Of a DNA stretch of 64,000 bases, positions 9,061-54,457 are shown one piece after another (the first letter of the stretch is position 1; each line of letters begins with the position of its first letter). The DNA is from Gammaproteobacteria bacterium (GTDB lineage: Bacteria > Pseudomonadota > Gammaproteobacteria > Steroidobacterales > PWYM01). The stretch is taken from contig RECU01000091.1 in NCBI GenBank assembly GCA_007693855.1, forward strand, positions 1,955 to 65,954, read 5' to 3'. The notes beneath the pieces were generated by a model. That model was not told where the DNA came from. It searched no databases and saw only the letters and a program-made list of their open reading frames with translations. The position numbers and the translations under genes are program-made.

Positions 9061-9551
9061 ATATTCGCCTCGTCGCACCAGCTTTGCTGATGACCTTCGC
9101 GCTGGGCGCCTGTGCGCCTGCACCCGATCCGGACGAGCCGCGCCCTGGCGCGGAGCCACCCGCACCGGGCCTCCAGTCGATGCCCGCGGTCGGTGATCCG
9201 GTAATGGTGCAGGTCCCGGAGCGCCATCCCTGGGAAATCAGCCGTATCGCCGGCTTCGAGTTGCCGCCGGAGGCCAGGCGTCCGACCTTGGTGCTGGAGG
9301 CCGAGACAGCCGAGGTCTCGGGCTTCGCCGGCGTCAATCGCTTTACCGGCTCCTACGAACTAGGTGCGGACCGCCTGGCGTTCGGCCCGCTTGCGAGCAC
9401 CCGCATGGCCGGGTCGCCGGAGGCCATGGCGATGGAGCAGATCTACCTCGAGGCCCTGTCGCGCATCGACGGCTGGCGGCTGCGTGACGAGCGGCTGGAG
9501 TTGCTGGTGGACGGCCAGCCGGTCCTGGTCTTCCGGCCCATGGCCGACTAG
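9057..9551 (+). CDS. META-domain (HslJ-like) lipoprotein
   Basis: In frame within ORF 8931..9551. GTG at 9057 gives VNIRLVAPALLMTFALGAC (lipobox), then GFAGVNRFTGSYELGADRLAFGPLASTRMAG, the META-domain pattern. Confidence 0.75.
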   Translation: MNIRLVAPALLMTFALGACAPAPDPDEPRPGAEPPAPGLQSMPAVGDPVMVQVPERHPWEISRIAGFELPPEARRPTLVLEAETAEVSGFAGVNRFTGSYELGADRLAFGPLASTRMAGSPEAMAMEQIYLEALSRIDGWRLRDERLELLVDGQPVLVFRPMAD

Positions 9552-50055: not shown

Positions 50056-51128
50056 CCCGGGCGCTGGCGGCGATCCGGCGCCAGGCCTACCGCGTGCCCC
50101 TCACACGTCCCTGGCGGGATGCCCGAGGGACGGTGAGCACCCGCGAGGGTTGGCTGGTCTGTGTCGAGGCGGCGGACGGCCAGCGTGGCTGGGGTGAGGC
50201 GGCCTGCCTGCCGACCCTGGGCACCGGCACCGCGACCGACATCGATGCGGCCCTGGCCTGGGCGGCGGACAGCCTGGTCGGGCTGGAGGCGGCCGAGGCC
50301 CTCGAGCGACTCGAGGGACTTGAGGCGCTTGAGGGTGCCAGTATCCTGGCCGGCGCACCGGCAGCGCGCTGCGCGCTGGAGTTCGCGCTGCTGGATCTGT
50401 CAGCCCGCCAAGCCGGCATGCCGCTATACCTCTGGTTGCGCGCTGACGCCGCGCCTGAGGTGGTCGTGAACGCCGCCATCGGCGGCCTGGACGACGGAAC
50501 GCCGCAGCGTCTGGCCACCGCCGCTGCGGCCGGCTACCCGGTGGCCAAGCTGAAGCTCGGGCTGGCCGCCGCCGAACGGGAATGGCCCGCGCTCGAACGG
50601 CTCCTTGCGGGCCGGCCGCCCGGCTGTGCGCTGCGCCTGGACGTCAATGGGGCCTGGCCGGTCGAAGTGGCCGCGCAGTTACTGCCACGCCTGTGTGGGC
50701 ACGGGATCGAGGCGCTGGAAGAGCCGGCCACGGCGGCCGGCGATGCCGTGCTGGCACGCTGGCAGGCGGCGCTCGACTATCCACTGGCAGTCGATGAATC
50801 CCTGCCCGCCCGCGCCGATACCGACCCGCTGCCCGTGCAACGCCAGGTACTCAAACCGATGCTGCTCGGCGGCCCGCGGCGGGCGCTGCGCCTGGCCCAG
50901 CGTCGCGCGGTCTCCAGCGTGGTCAGTTCAACGCTGGAGACGGCAGTCGGGCTCTGGGGGTGTGCGCACCTTGCCGCCGCCGTGCCTGTCGCCGGCGGTC
51001 GTCCGCTGGCGCATGGTCTCGATACTGGAGGGTGGCTGGCCCGGCTGCTGGGCCCTGCGTTGCCCGCCGACGGCGGGGTTACGTTGAGCGACGCGCCCGG
51101 CCTGGGGTTCGAGCCTGACATGGGCTGA
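50052..51128 (+). CDS. menC: o-succinylbenzoate synthase (enolase superfamily)
   Basis: 358 aa, 4-nt overlap with menA. KLKLG, LDVNGAW and VDESL metal-ligand contexts. Confidence 0.8.
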   Translation: MTRALAAIRRQAYRVPLTRPWRDARGTVSTREGWLVCVEAADGQRGWGEAACLPTLGTGTATDIDAALAWAADSLVGLEAAEALERLEGLEALEGASILAGAPAARCALEFALLDLSARQAGMPLYLWLRADAAPEVVVNAAIGGLDDGTPQRLATAAAAGYPVAKLKLGLAAAEREWPALERLLAGRPPGCALRLDVNGAWPVEVAAQLLPRLCGHGIEALEEPATAAGDAVLARWQAALDYPLAVDESLPARADTDPLPVQRQVLKPMLLGGPRRALRLAQRRAVSSVVSSTLETAVGLWGCAHLAAAVPVAGGRPLAHGLDTGGWLARLLGPALPADGGVTLSDAPGLGFEPDMG

Positions 51129-51316
51129 CCCGCACTGAATGAGTGATGTCACCATCACCGAGCGCCTACCGTACTGCTTCGATGATGGGGTTCCATCCCG
51201 TTTCCGCGGACGGTTTGGCAAAGGCTTCGACTTTTCAGATCGGTCGCATCGGTGGCCTATGTGAGGAAACTGCGAAAGATTGTTGACACTACCGCACGCA
51301 GGAGGCGGGAGGGGGA

Positions 51317-51385
51317 ATCTAACGTTCGAGCTCAGCTGCGAGCCGCGTGACAGGCCGGATCGTCGGCTGCAGCGGCAAGTTGGAT
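51317..51385 (-). repeat. attC-like site of cassette 2
   Basis: Minus strand: ATCCAAC (RYYYAAC) ... imperfect palindrome ... GTTAGAT (GTTRRRY), 69 bp, beginning 16 nt after the higA-2 stop. The 3' part (GCTGAnCTCGnnCGTTAGAT) is shared with the other site. Confidence 0.5.
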
Positions 51386-51401
51386 TCCGGGTCTTGGGCG
51401 T

Positions 51402-51674
51402 TCACGCCACATCCAGCAAGGCTCGCGGATTGTGGTCTGCAACAAGGAGCAACGTGCGAGCGGCTCCGCTAGGCGCACGCCGACCTTGCTCCCAATCTTG
51501 CAAGGTCCGCACAGAGACCCCCAGAAGCTCGGCAAATCGTGCCTGGGAGAGGCCGGTCTTCTCTCGAATCTGCCCGACGTCGGGAACGTTGATCACGCGC
51601 CCATGTTCACCGCGCTTGAGTTCGCGAAGCCCCTCAAGAATCTCGGCACCGATGTCACGTTTAAGCTTAGCCAT
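51402..51674 (-). CDS. higA: HigA-2-type HTH (XRE) antitoxin
   Basis: In ORF 51402..51731. ATG at 51674 gives MAKLKRDIGAEILEGLRELKRGEHGRV...IREKTGLSQARFAELLGVSVRTLQDWEQGRRAPSGAARTLL. Overlaps the toxin stop by 8 nt. Confidence 0.8.
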   Translation of the reverse strand: MAKLKRDIGAEILEGLRELKRGEHGRVINVPDVGQIREKTGLSQARFAELLGVSVRTLQDWEQGRRAPSGAARTLLLVADHNPRALLDVA

Positions 51675-51981
51675 CTTCCGTCTCCTCGCGAATCTTCCTA
51701 AGTACGTCCGTCGGTATCGATTCCGCGACACTCTTGGGATAGATCGTCAACATCCAGATCAAGTGTTTGGGGCGGCGCACAAAATAGATCAGCCGGTAGC
51801 CGCCCCGCTTACCTCTCCCGGGCGCTGCCACGCGGAGTTGCCGTATACCGCCTGAGCCTCGGATCACCGACCCTGCATCGGGATCAGCAATCAACTCCCG
51901 CTGCGCTGCAGCGTATTCATCGTCGGTGAGGCACTCCCGAACTAAGCGGGTAAAGAGCTTCGTCTCAACGAAGCTAAACAT
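51667..51981 (-). CDS. higB: HigB-2/RelE-family toxin
   Basis: 104 aa. MFSFVETKLFTRL...GSGGIRQLRVAAPGRGKRGGYRLIYF...WMLTIYPK resembles V. cholerae superintegron HigB-2 (from memory). Confidence 0.8.
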   Translation of the reverse strand: MFSFVETKLFTRLVRECLTDDEYAAAQRELIADPDAGSVIRGSGGIRQLRVAAPGRGKRGGYRLIYFVRRPKHLIWMLTIYPKSVAESIPTDVLRKIREETEDG

Positions 51982-51987
51982 TATCTG

Positions 51988-52015
51988 AGTATACGGCTTT
52001 GCCGTAGCTCGTCAA
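51988..52015 (-). promoter_or_regulatory. cassette-internal sigma70-like promoter of the higBA-2 cassette
   Basis: Minus strand: TTGACG (52015-52010), 16 nt spacer, TATACT (51993-51988). The ATG begins 7 nt after the -10 (6 intervening nt), implying a leaderless or near-leaderless mRNA. Palindrome ACGGCAAAGCCGT (52005-51993) abuts the -10. Confidence 0.5.
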
Positions 52016-52053
52016 GACCCCTGTATCGGCGGACGCGGGAGGCGGGAAAGGGA

Positions 52054-52152
52054 ATCTAACGACCGAGATCAGCGACAAAGCCAAGTGGCGCGGTATTTGC
52101 GCATGCAAAGGGCGTGACACTTGGCTTTGCCCGCTGCATCGACCTGTTATGC
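52054..52152 (-). repeat. attC-like site of cassette 1
   Basis: Minus strand: GCATAAC (52152-52146, contains the higA stop) ... 14-bp arms 52118-52131 / 52074-52087 (13/14 complementary) ... GTTAGAT (52060-52054), 99 bp. Confidence 0.5.
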
Positions 52153-52458
52153 GGCATCCAGTGGTTTGATTCGGGCCACATCCTTCTTTATCACCTGCGC
52201 CGCATCCCACAGGTCTACTGCTCGCTGAGCGTTCAACCAAAACTCCGGCGAGTTTCCGAACAGCCGTCCCAGGCGCAGCGCCATCTCCGGACTTACCGCA
52301 CGACGCTCCCGCAGCAGTTCGTTCACCGACTGACGCGAAACGCCCAGCGCCTCCGCCAGCCCCGAAACACTTAGTTCGTAGTCGGGAAAAAAGTCCTCGC
52401 GAAGCATCTCGCCCGGGTGCGTGGGCCTGCGCTTCATACCTGTATTGGGAATACTCAT
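52147..52458 (-). CDS. higA: HigA (VapI-type) HTH antitoxin
   Basis: 103 aa. RRPTHPGEMLREDFF...GLAEALGVSRQSVNELLRERRAVSPEMALRLGRLFGNSPEFWLNAQ. Confidence 0.85.
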   Translation of the reverse strand: MSIPNTGMKRRPTHPGEMLREDFFPDYELSVSGLAEALGVSRQSVNELLRERRAVSPEMALRLGRLFGNSPEFWLNAQRAVDLWDAAQVIKKDVARIKPLDAA

Positions 52459-52471
52459 GCCTCACACCTAC

Positions 52472-52753
52472 TCAGTGGTAGTCGCAGATCTCGACATCGT
52501 AAGCGTCACCGTCTTTGAACTGAAAACAGATCCGCCACTGGTCGTTAATCGAGATGGAATGCTGGCCCCGCCGGTCGCCCGAGAGAGCGTGGAGTCTGTT
52601 TCCTCGCGGAACCTTCAGGTCCTCCAGGCGGATCGCAAGGTCCAGATACTCAAGCTTACGAACAGCCCGCCTCCTGATGTCCGGCGGCCAGCGGGTCGAT
52701 TTTCCCGTAACGTAAAGCTCACGGGTGGCGCGATCCGCAAAAGTTTTGAGCAT
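52472..52753 (-). CDS. higB: HigB (plasmid maintenance killer, RelE superfamily) toxin
   Basis: 93 aa. MLKTFADRATRELY...LKVPRGNRLHALSGDRRGQHSISINDQWRICFQF..GDAYDVEICDYH. Confidence 0.85.
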   Translation of the reverse strand: MLKTFADRATRELYVTGKSTRWPPDIRRRAVRKLEYLDLAIRLEDLKVPRGNRLHALSGDRRGQHSISINDQWRICFQFKDGDAYDVEICDYH

Positions 52754-52760
52754 GCGCTCG

Positions 52761-52789
52761 AGCGTATGCTGTCACGTGACGCGTGTCAA
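52761..52789 (-). promoter_or_regulatory. cassette-internal sigma70-like promoter of the higBA cassette, with a palindromic operator candidate
   Basis: Minus strand: TTGACA (52789-52784), 17 nt spacer, TACGCT (52766-52761). Perfect palindrome GTCACGTGAC (52771-52780) lies in the spacer. The ATG begins 8 nt after the -10 (7 intervening nt). Confidence 0.55.
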
Positions 52790-52805
52790 GGCGTCCTCTT
52801 AGACC

Positions 52806-52925
52806 GCATAACTTTGATTTGGACCCCAAAAACGCGCCTTTTCAATAGAACGTTTTCGGTTTGATATACGGGAACTGGGAACGTAACCCCCTGTTCGAAT
52901 ACGTTGCGGCTGCTGGATCGGGGGG
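52806..52925 (-). other. attI-like region and attI/cassette-1 junction
   Basis: Located between the intI remnant start and cassette 1. The minus strand reads ...AAATCAAAG|TTATGCGG with the G at 52812. TTATGC is complementary to the GCATAAC core of cassette 1's own attC. Confidence 0.4.
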
Positions 52926-53190
52926 GTGACAAATCGAGGGGTAAAGCGAGAGGTGGACGCAGGGAATCGTCCGCGGCGACTGCTTGATCAGGTGCGAGAC
53001 GTGTTGCGCAGGCGGCATTATGCCTACCGGGCCGAGAAAAGCTACGTAGGGTGGATACGCAAATTCATCTTGTTCCATGGCCAGCACTGGGAGGAGTATG
53101 CCCAGCGGCTGGCACACAAGAGCAGGGAGGGAGATGTCATGATCCTGGGATTGCGTACCGCGATGTGTCACGCCAAAGACCTGGACGCTG
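52926..53190 (+). pseudogene. intI: integron integrase remnant (internally deleted and frameshifted)
   Basis: Translation RPRRLLDQVRDVLRRRHYAYRAEKSYVGWIRKFILFHGQ matches the IntI N-terminus. After about 20 unrelated codons, GLRTAMCHAKDLD resembles the GLRxxECLRLRVKDxDF box. About 80 aa between these are missing and nothing IntI-like follows in frame up to 53428. Confidence 0.65.
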
Positions 53191-53428
53191 CCGGCGCGGC
53201 AAGTCCCTGCCTCGAGGCCAGCTGGCTGCGCCCCATCGAGGCGCGGGATCTGGTCCGCCTGCTGCGTCAGTACACGATGACCCTGGGGATCGCCAGTCCG
53301 GCGATGGTGGCCGGCCTGGCCGGGGCGACGGCAGGTACTTGGCGGCACCGTCCATATCCAGGTCGCATACTTCGCGGAGGACGGCCCCCGCGATCGAACG
53401 GTGCTCGCTCACGCCCAGGCTCGGCCGC

Positions 53429-54421
53429 TCAAGACTCCCCTGGTTGCGCCATGACGCCTTTGATCAGCGCCAGCACGCGTTCGGGGCGCGCATGCGCCAC
53501 CATATGGCCGACGCCTGGCAATCGCTCGATGCTCACCATCGGCACGTTCTGCAATGCGCCGAGGTGGACCTCGGGCTCGAGGATGGCGTCCTCCTTGCCA
53601 TAGATCACGCGGACCGGCACCCCGAGCTGCGCGTAGCGCGACCGATAGTGTTCCAGGCCAGCGTTGAGCGCCAGCAGGTCGCCGATGGTGGACAGGATCT
53701 GTCCCGGGCGACGGGCCAGCAGGCCACCATCGGTGGTCGCAAAATCCTCTGGCACAGGCTGCGGCTGGAATACCCTGGCCAGCGTGTCGTCGGCGAAGTG
53801 CCGTGATGCCGGCACGGCGATGGTCCAGGCCAGCAGCTGCTGGAACCAGCGGCGCTCGAGCATCGGACTGTCCAGCGGAGCCTCCAGTTCGACCGGTGTC
53901 GTTGCCGGTGCCAGCAGCACCAGGCGAGAGACCGTGCGCGGATGATCCAGCGCCAGTGCCAGGGCGACCGCCCCGCCCAGCGAGTGCCCGACGACGATCG
54001 CCGATTCTATGTCGAGCTGATCGAGCAGCGTGGCGATGACGCTGGCCTGGTCGGCAAGTGCCCTTGAGCGCGCAGGCGGACGGCTACTGTATCCCGAGCC
54101 TGGTCGATCGATGGCGATGACGCGATGACTGTGGGCAAGTTCGTCGGCGATGGGGCTGAAGTTCCGGCTGCTGCCGCCCAGCCCGTGAATCAGCACCACC
54201 ACCGGGCCGCGCCCCTGGTCGACGTAGTGCATCCGCGCGCCCTCGACGTCGATGAAGATCCCGGGCGGCGGCAGCTGTCGCGCGACGTCTCTCATCGTCA
54301 CTACGGTATATGCGCTCAGTACGCCCAGCAGGACGAGCAGCGCCACGCCGCCCAGGACCACGCACTGCCGGATCGCCCTCATGCCGGTCGAGAAAGCGCC
54401 GGCACTGTCATCGACTGCCAT
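53429..54421 (-). CDS. alpha/beta hydrolase with N-terminal TM anchor
   Basis: 330 aa. VVLIHGLGGSSRNF and VVGHSLGGAVAL nucleophile elbow; C-terminal GVGHMV. Confidence 0.8.
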   Translation of the reverse strand: MAVDDSAGAFSTGMRAIRQCVVLGGVALLVLLGVLSAYTVVTMRDVARQLPPPGIFIDVEGARMHYVDQGRGPVVVLIHGLGGSSRNFSPIADELAHSHRVIAIDRPGSGYSSRPPARSRALADQASVIATLLDQLDIESAIVVGHSLGGAVALALALDHPRTVSRLVLLAPATTPVELEAPLDSPMLERRWFQQLLAWTIAVPASRHFADDTLARVFQPQPVPEDFATTDGGLLARRPGQILSTIGDLLALNAGLEHYRSRYAQLGVPVRVIYGKEDAILEPEVHLGALQNVPMVSIERLPGVGHMVAHARPERVLALIKGVMAQPGES

Positions 54422-54457
54422 GGTTCAGTCCCGAACCCGGTGAGTCCGACCGCCCGC

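Follow-up and report, generated by a model that had tools for sequence, protein, structure and literature searches.

What is the low-GC DNA beyond menC in an uncultured gammaproteobacterium, and how did it come to lie there? The question is raised by a stretch of 64,000 nucleotides from contig RECU01000091.1 of assembly GCA_007693855.1 (positions 1,955 to 65,954, forward strand), referred to here as the window, in which a complete menaquinone operon, menF-menD-menH-menB-menA-menC, is found upstream of a short block of genes of another kind. A sequence-only reading of this DNA had proposed a decayed chromosomal integron, with the remnant of an integron integrase (IntI), two toxin-antitoxin (TA) cassettes and two attC recombination sites. 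The computational analysis reported here supports that reading in its essentials: the locus is very probably an integron head whose integrase has been lost and in which two TA cassettes were kept. Read on the minus strand, the order is an attI-like junction, a 752-bp HigB/HigA cassette, a 99-nt attC (attC1), a 737-bp HigB-2/HigA-2 cassette, a 69-nt attC (attC2) and a 194-bp stub.

The integrase remnant is part of a plus-strand open reading frame (ORF) at 52926-53603, which includes LLDQVRDVLRRRHYAYRAEKSYVGWIRKFILFHG. Profile comparison near 52926-53190, which the sequence-only reading had suggested as a check on its claim of an IntI N-terminus, gave significant similarity: residues 19-60 match PF13495 of Pfam (E 1.7e-8), and residues 17-53 only match the integron-integrase models of NCBIfam, NF011946 (E 5.7e-7) and TIGR02249 (E 1.5e-6), over a span corresponding to positions 1-35 of 315 in the IntI model. 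The best solved structure for the stub is IntI4 of Vibrio cholerae (PDB 2A3V). An exhaustive homology search with the stub through 1.84 billion representatives returned 7704 matches, and ten of the nearest longer relatives all matched TIGR02249 best, far above the XerC and XerD models, so that the claim of an IntI N-terminus was borne out; P0008, a full-length IntI, reached 496 bits against TIGR02249. A word-indexed homologue search with the 70-residue stub found two proteins only, both of them truncated likewise.

The end of the remnant was located by tblastn. With seven IntI relatives as queries, clear similarity stops at 53084, with a possible weak continuation to about 53139 past a gap of about eight codons, and no other IntI-like stretch was found in the 64-kb window. 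With the full-length IntI P0008, no similarity was seen by tblastn past 53207, and the six frames of 53140-53470 gave zero Pfam matches. The stub retains some 53-71 of roughly 320 intI codons, and the catalytic domain together with the IntI-specific insertion has been lost. The locus is not a complete integron, in which a catalytic IntI (PF00589) with its C-terminal insertion would be present, and the description of the integrase as dead agrees with the finding of zero catalytic-domain similarity in the window. Because that domain is absent, the array is not rearrangeable in cis. A VOC-like N-terminus noticed by eye from 53140 onward (MILGLRTAMCHAKDLDAAG) was dropped, being without family support. 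As a separate observation, for many of the nearest IntI relatives (P0005, P0007, P0008, P0010 and others) the similarity to the N-terminal query is split into two or three stretches; in P0008 (459 residues) an extra segment of about 140 residues, repeating the SAM-like N-terminal motif, precedes the full-length IntI. These relatives appear to form a subgroup of IntI in which the N-terminal domain is duplicated.

The two attC sites carry the boxes by which such sites are recognized. In attC1, R'' is GCATAAC, overlapping the HigA stop codon, and R' is GTTAGAT; in attC2, R'' is ATCCAAC and R' is again GTTAGAT. The R'' of attC2 fits the RYYYAAC consensus, and that of attC1 has one deviation. Unconstrained folding of attC1 gave -30.7 kcal/mol for the bottom strand (z -6.15) and -22.5 kcal/mol for the top strand. 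The bottom strand is the more stable one in both sites, by 8.2 kcal/mol in attC1 and by 1.9 kcal/mol in attC2, which is the same direction as reported for non-Vibrio attCs (PMC5371416).

A family for these sites was recruited from a metagenome collection, which was scanned with the pattern TCTAACGNNCGAGNTCAGC N29-59 GCTGCANCG, made from the bases common to both window sites. The scan yielded 60 contigs, mostly with JGI metagenome (Ga0...) identifiers and with flanks that are all different, and the 53 distinct sites align as one hairpin, in which 92.8% of cells are paired when the R box is included. RNAalifold found 16 pairs, 10 of them with compensatory changes; both-sided pair changes were observed in 148 cells versus 43 in shuffles, and slid controls paired at 26-44%. 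A position left free in the pattern covaries perfectly, as part of an L-box pair that reads T-A 46 times, A-T 4 times and C-G 3 times, and the same pair is A-T in attC1 and C-G in attC2 of the window. The family hairpin begins with a 7-bp R box (RTCTAAC / GTTRRRY) and an unpaired spacer of 6/5 nt, and in its inner part three pairs and a bulged C are followed by six pairs, a bulged T/G/C and a variable terminal stem-loop, with both bulges on the 3' arm. Folded attC bottom strands have been described as having extrahelical bases, an unpaired central spacer and a variable terminal structure, at lengths of 57-141 nt (PMC5371416). By their sequence, both window sites possess the hairpin, the R''/R' boxes, the spacer and the extrahelical bases of an attC.

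A covariance model, R1, was then built from the 53 metagenomic sites (alignment A1), with zero window sequences included. On the window, R1 hit 52054-52153 with 55.4 bits (E 6.8e-16) and 51317-51386 with 54.8 bits (E 1.1e-15, full model), both on the plus strand, and thereby recovered independently the two sites of the sequence-only reading. They are the only hits, the next best in the 64 kb scoring 14.5 bits; they lie in the same orientation, 737 nt apart, and on the strand that is predicted by the geometry of intI and attI. The family members closest to attC1 are L074, L030 and L082.

Outside the window, the same family forms arrays. On one 10-kb contig (L068, 119-10061), up to 19 same-strand R1 hits follow each other at a spacing of about 400-700 nt, and similar arrays were found in L077, L062 and L033, so that the family occurs in arrays whose members bound single ORFs or short operons. 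Metagenomic array members score 28-95 bits with R1, and the window attCs, at 55 bits, are within the ordinary range. The soil and rhizosphere arrays share with the window the attC family itself, with its R box TCTAAC/GTTRRRY, its covarying L-box pair and its two bulged bases, but they hold up to 19 or more cassettes on contigs with a GC of 0.5-0.7, whereas the window holds two. R1 also recovers three of the four attCs that visual inspection had picked out in L002, next to a related intI that is truncated as well, and the geometry there is as in the window, with hits on the intI strand and upstream of intI. L002 belongs to a second, unrelated locus on contigs L001-L003, those with P0002, where IntI is truncated at about 119 residues beside four normal cassettes; this too is an integron head in decay, and its host is a different organism. 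Beyond its intI, the same-population contigs differ, with glycosyltransferases in L001 and a TfoX_C gene in L002.

If the cassettes had been inserted by an integrase, their ends should show it. The crossover points, re-derived from the sequence and marked here by a slash, are G/TT at 52812/52811 (the attI junction AAAG/TTATGC), 52060/52059 and 51323/51322. They delimit cassette 1 as 52811..52060 (752 bp) and cassette 2 as 52059..51323 (737 bp), exactly the boundaries proposed from the letters alone. From the intI start to G/TTATGC there are 113 bp, and the core at this attI-like junction, read from the sequence, fits GTTRRRY. The start of cassette 1, GTTATGC, is complementary in 7/7 positions to its own R'', GCATAAC, 750 bp away, confirming what had been pointed out for this cassette, and the start of cassette 2, GTTAGAT, is complementary to its own R'', ATCCAAC, in 6/7. 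By comparison, the R' now beside attC1 (GTTAGAT) agrees with the R'' of that site in 4/7, being GTT plus one. Such complementarity between the 5' end of a cassette and its own R'' is the expectation for inserted circular cassettes, and both elements are integron cassettes on this ground; the hairpins are therefore unlike a terminator or a repetitive extragenic palindromic (REP)-like hairpin, which would not show it. In L002 the same own-end rule holds in three of four cassettes, the start sequence of the first one not having been found.

The array does not end cleanly at attC2. A stub begins with TTAGAT after the G of the attC2 R' and stops 1 nt beyond the stop codon of menC. Through a 44-nt direct repeat (51293-51336 and 52030-52073, 84% identity), the two attC regions are homologous beyond the R' core as well, for 24 nt at the beginning of the cassette that follows (TCCCYYYCCCGCCTCCYGCGTSCG, minus strand; 51293-51316 and 52030-52053). 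This 24-nt junction repeat occurs twice versus 0.00 expected and is shared by none of the 60 metagenomic family members; because all 60 metagenomic attC flanks differ, the match is locus-specific. The 188-bp left stub showed no homology by BLAST against the relatives, the metagenomic arrays and the window. The segment 51322-51129 is best read as a truncated third cassette, whose 5' end would be related to that of cassette 2. At 53112-53134 the G-rich junction motif recurs a third time (78%), which was judged a chance low-complexity match.

The cargo of the cassettes is of the TA kind, as the sequence-only reading had it, and both pairs are intact. In cassette 1, HigB matches PF05015 over the full model with 60.4 bits (cut-off 27) and, among solved structures, PDB 6F8S (5e-23) and Proteus HigB 4MCT (2e-11), and HigA matches TIGR02607 with 104.5 bits (cut-off 47.7) and PDB 7CSV, 6F8S and 3CEC at about 1e-20; the toxin gene precedes that of the antitoxin, 13 nt lying between them. 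In cassette 2, HigB-2 matches PF06296 with 29.3 bits (cut-off 27) and V. cholerae HigB-2 (PDB 5JA8/5JA9, 3e-20), and HigA-2, which is MqsA/NadS-like, matches PF01381 (1.4e-10) and V. cholerae HigA-2 (PDB 5JAA/5J9I, 2e-11); the toxin gene is again first and overlaps the antitoxin start by 8 nt. HigA-2 is below the NCBIfam cut-offs and is called as a 90-residue gene in public assemblies. On these matches, the two cassettes encode type II TA pairs, HigB/HigA and HigB-2/HigA-2, which probably remain active. In at least seven public samples, neither ORF pair shows any change. Between attCs of the same family, two metagenomic arrays (L025 and L045) also have HigBA cassettes, of 42-54% identity and in the same orientation.

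Each TA operon seems to bring its own promoter. In a scan of 51000-53500 for sigma-70-like sites, TTGACG-16-TATACT of cassette 2 was the single call, with 10/12 matches; its -10 hexamer ends 6 nt before the toxin ATG and is overlapped by a palindrome read from the sequence, TACGGC-AAA-GCCGTA, which looks like an operator. In cassette 1, TTGACA-17-TACGCT ends 7 nt before the HigB ATG and was left uncalled by the scan because its -10 hexamer matches 3/6. It carries the palindromes GTCACGTGAC and AGCATACGCTCGAGCGCATGCT (read from the sequence, with I15 also computed), which are likely to be HigA operators. Across 51979-52015 and 52751-52789 on the minus strand, no Shine-Dalgarno sequence precedes the toxin ATG in either operon. 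Since the -10 hexamers end 6-7 nt before the ATG and such a sequence is missing, leaderless mRNAs are suggested, and both operons are probably expressed in this form. TA cassettes are known to be enriched in sedentary chromosomal integrons, where they penalise cassette excision (PMC13108822).

Composition separates the integron part from its surroundings. In 300-nt windows, GC is 0.54-0.63 across about 51130-53140 and 0.69-0.76 in the men genes; per feature, 51129-53139 has 0.57-0.62, and the flanks and host are near 0.70. GC at third codon positions (GC3) is 0.59-0.78 over the block features, with 0.59-0.75 in the four TA genes and 0.64 in the intI stub, against 0.81-0.84 in menC, the alpha/beta-hydrolase gene and DUF1838. 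The integron part is thus compositionally foreign. The sequence-only reading was right in calling the block lower in GC and went too far in giving it 2.3 kb: the low-GC part measures 2.0 kb (51129-53139), and the last 289 bp, the spacer at 53140-53428, has a GC of 0.70 and no codon periodicity. This spacer had no BLAST match in the relatives, the metagenomic arrays or the window.

The site without the block can be seen in relatives. Three of them, L084, L085 and L086, were found by MenC homology (MenC 76%, 72% and 68% identical); their MenA is 92% and their DUF1838 86-89% identical. In L084, 27 bp separate menC from a convergent DUF1838-menE pair; menC and DUF1838 of L085 overlap by 4 nt, and in L086 menE comes directly after menC. 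Comparison of the menC-to-hydrolase interval in relatives, a check also suggested beforehand, therefore shows that the block is not conserved and that the site is empty in all three. The lineage-specific insert is 51129-54457, 3.3 kb in length, and comprises the integron relic, the 289-bp spacer and the hydrolase gene, the last of these being included because menC of the relatives abuts DUF1838 or menE directly. The integron relic does lie beside menC, as proposed, but a convergent hydrolase/menE unit does not describe its other side: the ancestral unit, seen in relatives, is DUF1838-menE, and L084, L085 and L086 have no hydrolase gene at this place. Orthologues of the hydrolase, 80% and 72% identical, occur in unrelated contexts (L010 and L011), three different genomic contexts being counted, and a synteny search through the hydrolase found zero men genes and zero integron around it in L010 and L011. 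That search had been taken as a route to the empty site and failed as such; a hydrolase that is not ancestral at this site was first suggested by it. Close to the ends of the block, inverted repeats (I7, 75%) were considered as transposon ends and rejected as too weak.

Among near-identical samples, the locus hardly varies. It recurs at 99.6-99.98% identity in several assemblies of public read sets and in the metagenome-assembled genome (MAG) GCA_020832015.1; the samples with at least 99.6% identity, all of which have it, represent a single population. The same two cassettes, in the same order, are present in every public sample. The sole variant is an insertion sequence (IS) of the IS1182 family in the R' core of attC1, after GTT (window 52058/52057), in at least two samples, L006 (833-2614) and L007 (2407-2429). 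It encodes a transposase of 514 residues (288 bits) and has terminal inverted repeats GAGGCTGTAGAAAAACCC. GTT appears duplicated on either side of the element; the window copy is without it, and contig L008 ends at the same position.

A history that would produce such a locus can be outlined. An IntI encoded on the plus strand would once have inserted circular cassettes at attI (G/TT, 52812/52811), and insertions of the attI x attC type would have built the array that is read on the minus strand. Later deletions would have removed most of intI and the distal array, and the addiction effect of the TA modules is a likely reason why both cassettes survived. The attC sites would still serve as substrates if IntI were supplied in trans. 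The integron part probably arrived by horizontal transfer and then decayed, or came already truncated. Because the intI stub is as low in GC as the cassettes, the whole platform looks horizontally acquired, and it most probably was acquired in this way rather than being an old resident. On this point the sequence-only reading, which had pointed to TA cassettes as a hallmark of sedentary chromosomal integrons, is refined, with the stub low in GC and the site of the relatives empty.

The relic may have arrived already truncated, in one 3.3-kb segment that was horizontally acquired or translocated and joined to the convergent gap between menC and DUF1838 by illegitimate recombination. The whole of 51129-54457 being lineage-specific, with a gap of 0-27 bp from menC to DUF1838 or menE in relatives, speaks for such an arrival, as do the GC of the stub, as low as that of the cassettes, and the ends, at which no transposase, inverted repeat or target duplication is seen. 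However, the hydrolase has a host-like GC3 of 0.81 and orthologues in related MAGs, whereas the integron part is foreign; two origins, with at least two events, are therefore likelier than one, and a single pre-truncated segment is entertained as a possibility on the doubtful side of even. A different suggestion is that the array is not frozen at all, and that the cassettes are still being excised and reordered, through the intact attCs, by an IntI whose gene lies in another part of the genome. Both attCs do score as ordinary array members (55 against 28-95 bits), and clusters of attC sites lacking integron-integrases (CALINs) are often found in replicons that encode IntI elsewhere (PMC4889954). 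This suggestion is nevertheless an unlikely one, given zero IntI similarity elsewhere in the 64-kb window and cassettes whose content and order are identical in every public sample, with the IS as the sole variant.

Two further explanations do away with the resident integrase or with the integron. Cassettes could have been put at a secondary, non-att site by an integrase acting in trans, so that the locus would be a CALIN without an integrase of its own at any time, and the IntI-like stub would have no relation to it; insertion at secondary sites by IntI is documented (PMC4889954; bioRxiv 10.1101/2022.09.11.507474). An IntI N-terminus that is read divergently and lies 113 bp from the first junction is, however, the canonical geometry of intI, attI and cassette, which L002 repeats, and the stub has the foreign composition of the cassettes; insertion at a secondary site is thus highly improbable. 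The last explanation sees two ordinary TA operons, terminator-like or REP-like hairpins and a chance recombinase-like ORF. TA operons are indeed common outside integrons, and the unconstrained fold of attC2 would suit this view. Against it are the R1 hits at the predicted sites and strand only, arrays of up to 19 sites in the same family, complementarity of each cassette to its own 5' end (7/7 and 6/7), matches to IntI-specific models and zero Rfam families, so that it is given almost no credence; the classification of IntI, the covariation, the R1 hits and the arrays have effectively refuted it already.

Several points weigh against the integron head itself and have to be set beside the evidence above. 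The IntI identity depends on about 35-53 residues, with no remnant of the catalytic domain beside them. The unconstrained fold of attC2 is -15.3 kcal/mol with a z of -1.3, no better than shuffled sequence, and attC2 fits the hairpin under the family model only. Part of the 55-bit scores arises by construction, because the family pattern was derived from the two sites of the window; support that does not depend on the pattern comes from the covarying pair, the spacing to GTTRRRY, the fit of the inner stem, the strand and the cross-hit in L002. No intI was found on any of the 60 metagenomic attC contigs, and for that reason the link of the family to an integrase stands on the array architecture and on L002. 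The attI-like region gave no usable alignment to the attI region of L002; a general sequence model for attI does not exist, and position together with the GTTRRRY core is what suggests the attI label. The hydrolase and the 289-bp spacer belong to the same insert and are unaccounted for by an integron head. Finally, relatives of intermediate distance were not found.

Among described elements, the closest class is that of the CALIN, defined by two or more attC sites within 4 kb in the absence of an integron integrase, for which loss of intI is one proposed origin (PMC4889954). The window has two attCs within 4 kb, in the same orientation, and no functional integron integrase, so that it counts as a CALIN, or as an integron in any state. 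It differs from the class as described in that the integron head is still recognizable, by the attI-like junction and the N-terminal intI stub. An intI pseudogene was detected in only 15 of 279 CALINs, under the requirement that over 50% of the intI_Cterm or PF00589 profiles be covered (PMC4889954). An N-terminal-only stub like that of the window would fail this requirement, and rules of the IntegronFinder type would probably class the locus as an orphan CALIN without a recognisable intI pseudogene. The relic is of a familiar kind, of a type already described, and is a small and well-preserved example of it.

In V. cholerae, the higBA cassettes stand among many others, beside a working IntIA. 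The second cassette of the window is a homologue of higBA-2 of that superintegron (PDB 5JA8/5JAA), and both higBA-1 and higBA-2 resemble the window cassettes in having the toxin gene first and promoters of their own, those of the window being putative. Unlike the superintegron, the window has just two TA cassettes left, its attCs are from another sequence family than the V. cholerae repeats, and its host is a high-GC uncultured gammaproteobacterium. Xanthomonas pathovars are reported to have chromosomal integrons with an inactivated intI, in which cassettes and attCs persist; these are ancestral at a conserved locus and have a host-like composition. The window shares with them the chromosomal position, the integrase pseudogene and the retention of cassettes and attCs, but its relic is compositionally foreign and absent from the closest relatives. 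Sedentary chromosomal integrons, which are present in all strains or have more than 10 or more than 19 attC sites and have evolved together with their host, do not include a locus of this kind: there are two attCs, the site is empty in the closest relatives, and stub and cassettes have a foreign GC.

The value of the locus is that of a worked case, in which an integron head, insertion signatures, a truncated third cassette, an empty site and a variant with an IS in an attC core are found at one place. It would also illustrate the general point that the last cassettes to remain are the self-stabilising ones. Pseudogene searches with C-terminal profiles would probably label such relics as orphan attC clusters. 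A broader conjecture, which is rather unlikely as it stands, is that TA addiction decides which cassettes survive and that many CALINs without a trace of integrase may be dead integron heads with N-terminal-only intI stubs, invisible to C-terminal profiles. If it were true, a scan of CALIN flanks with an N-terminal IntI profile and a rule for the attI junction would move a sizeable part of the 95% 'orphan' CALINs to the class of in-situ integrase loss, and TA cassettes would be over-represented beside such stubs. The model of the attC family, whose arrays in soil metagenomes reach 19 sites, is a ready tool for detecting more arrays of this kind.

The features of the locus are collected in the table below. 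Besides them, zero Rfam families were matched over 50900-53600.

Table. Features between menC and the end of the hydrolase gene, in window coordinates
Feature	Position	Strand	Basis or remark
Third-cassette stub (194 bp)	51129..51322	-	GC 0.57, no periodicity
attC2 (69 nt)	51317..51385	- (top strand); recombinogenic bottom strand is window +	Model R1
HigA-2-like helix-turn-helix antitoxin, 90 residues, ATG at 51674	51402..51674	-	PF01381, PDB 5JAA/5J9I
HigB-2-like RelE-fold toxin, 104 residues	51667..51981	-	PF06296, PDB 5JA8/5JA9
Putative cassette 2 promoter, TTGACG-16-TATACT	51988..52015	-	Sigma-70-like site scan
attC1 (99 nt)	52054..52152	-	Model R1
HigA antitoxin, 103 residues	52147..52458	-	TIGR02607
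HigB toxin, 93 residues, upstream of HigA	52472..52753	-	PF05015
Promoter-like TTGACA-17-TACGCT in cassette 1	52761..52789	-	Read from sequence
attI-like region, intI start to first cassette	52812..52925	-	Position and GTTRRRY core
intI pseudogene, N-terminal SAM-like domain only	52926..53139	+	Profile, PDB and tblastn matches
GC-rich non-coding spacer	53140..53428	.	Composition, no homology
Alpha/beta-hydrolase gene, outside the integron proper	53429..54421	-	PF00561 1.7e-34; GC3 0.81, host-like

Two observations concern the neighbouring genes. MenH proper is another hydrolase, encoded within the men operon (L020), and not the product of 53429-54421. In the empty-site relative L084, the 27-bp gap between menC and DUF1838 (9066-9092) is almost entirely a GC-rich palindrome (CGAGCTCCGCGCGCGAGCTCG), probably a bidirectional terminator shared by the two convergent genes, and the insert of the window took the place of a sequence of this type.

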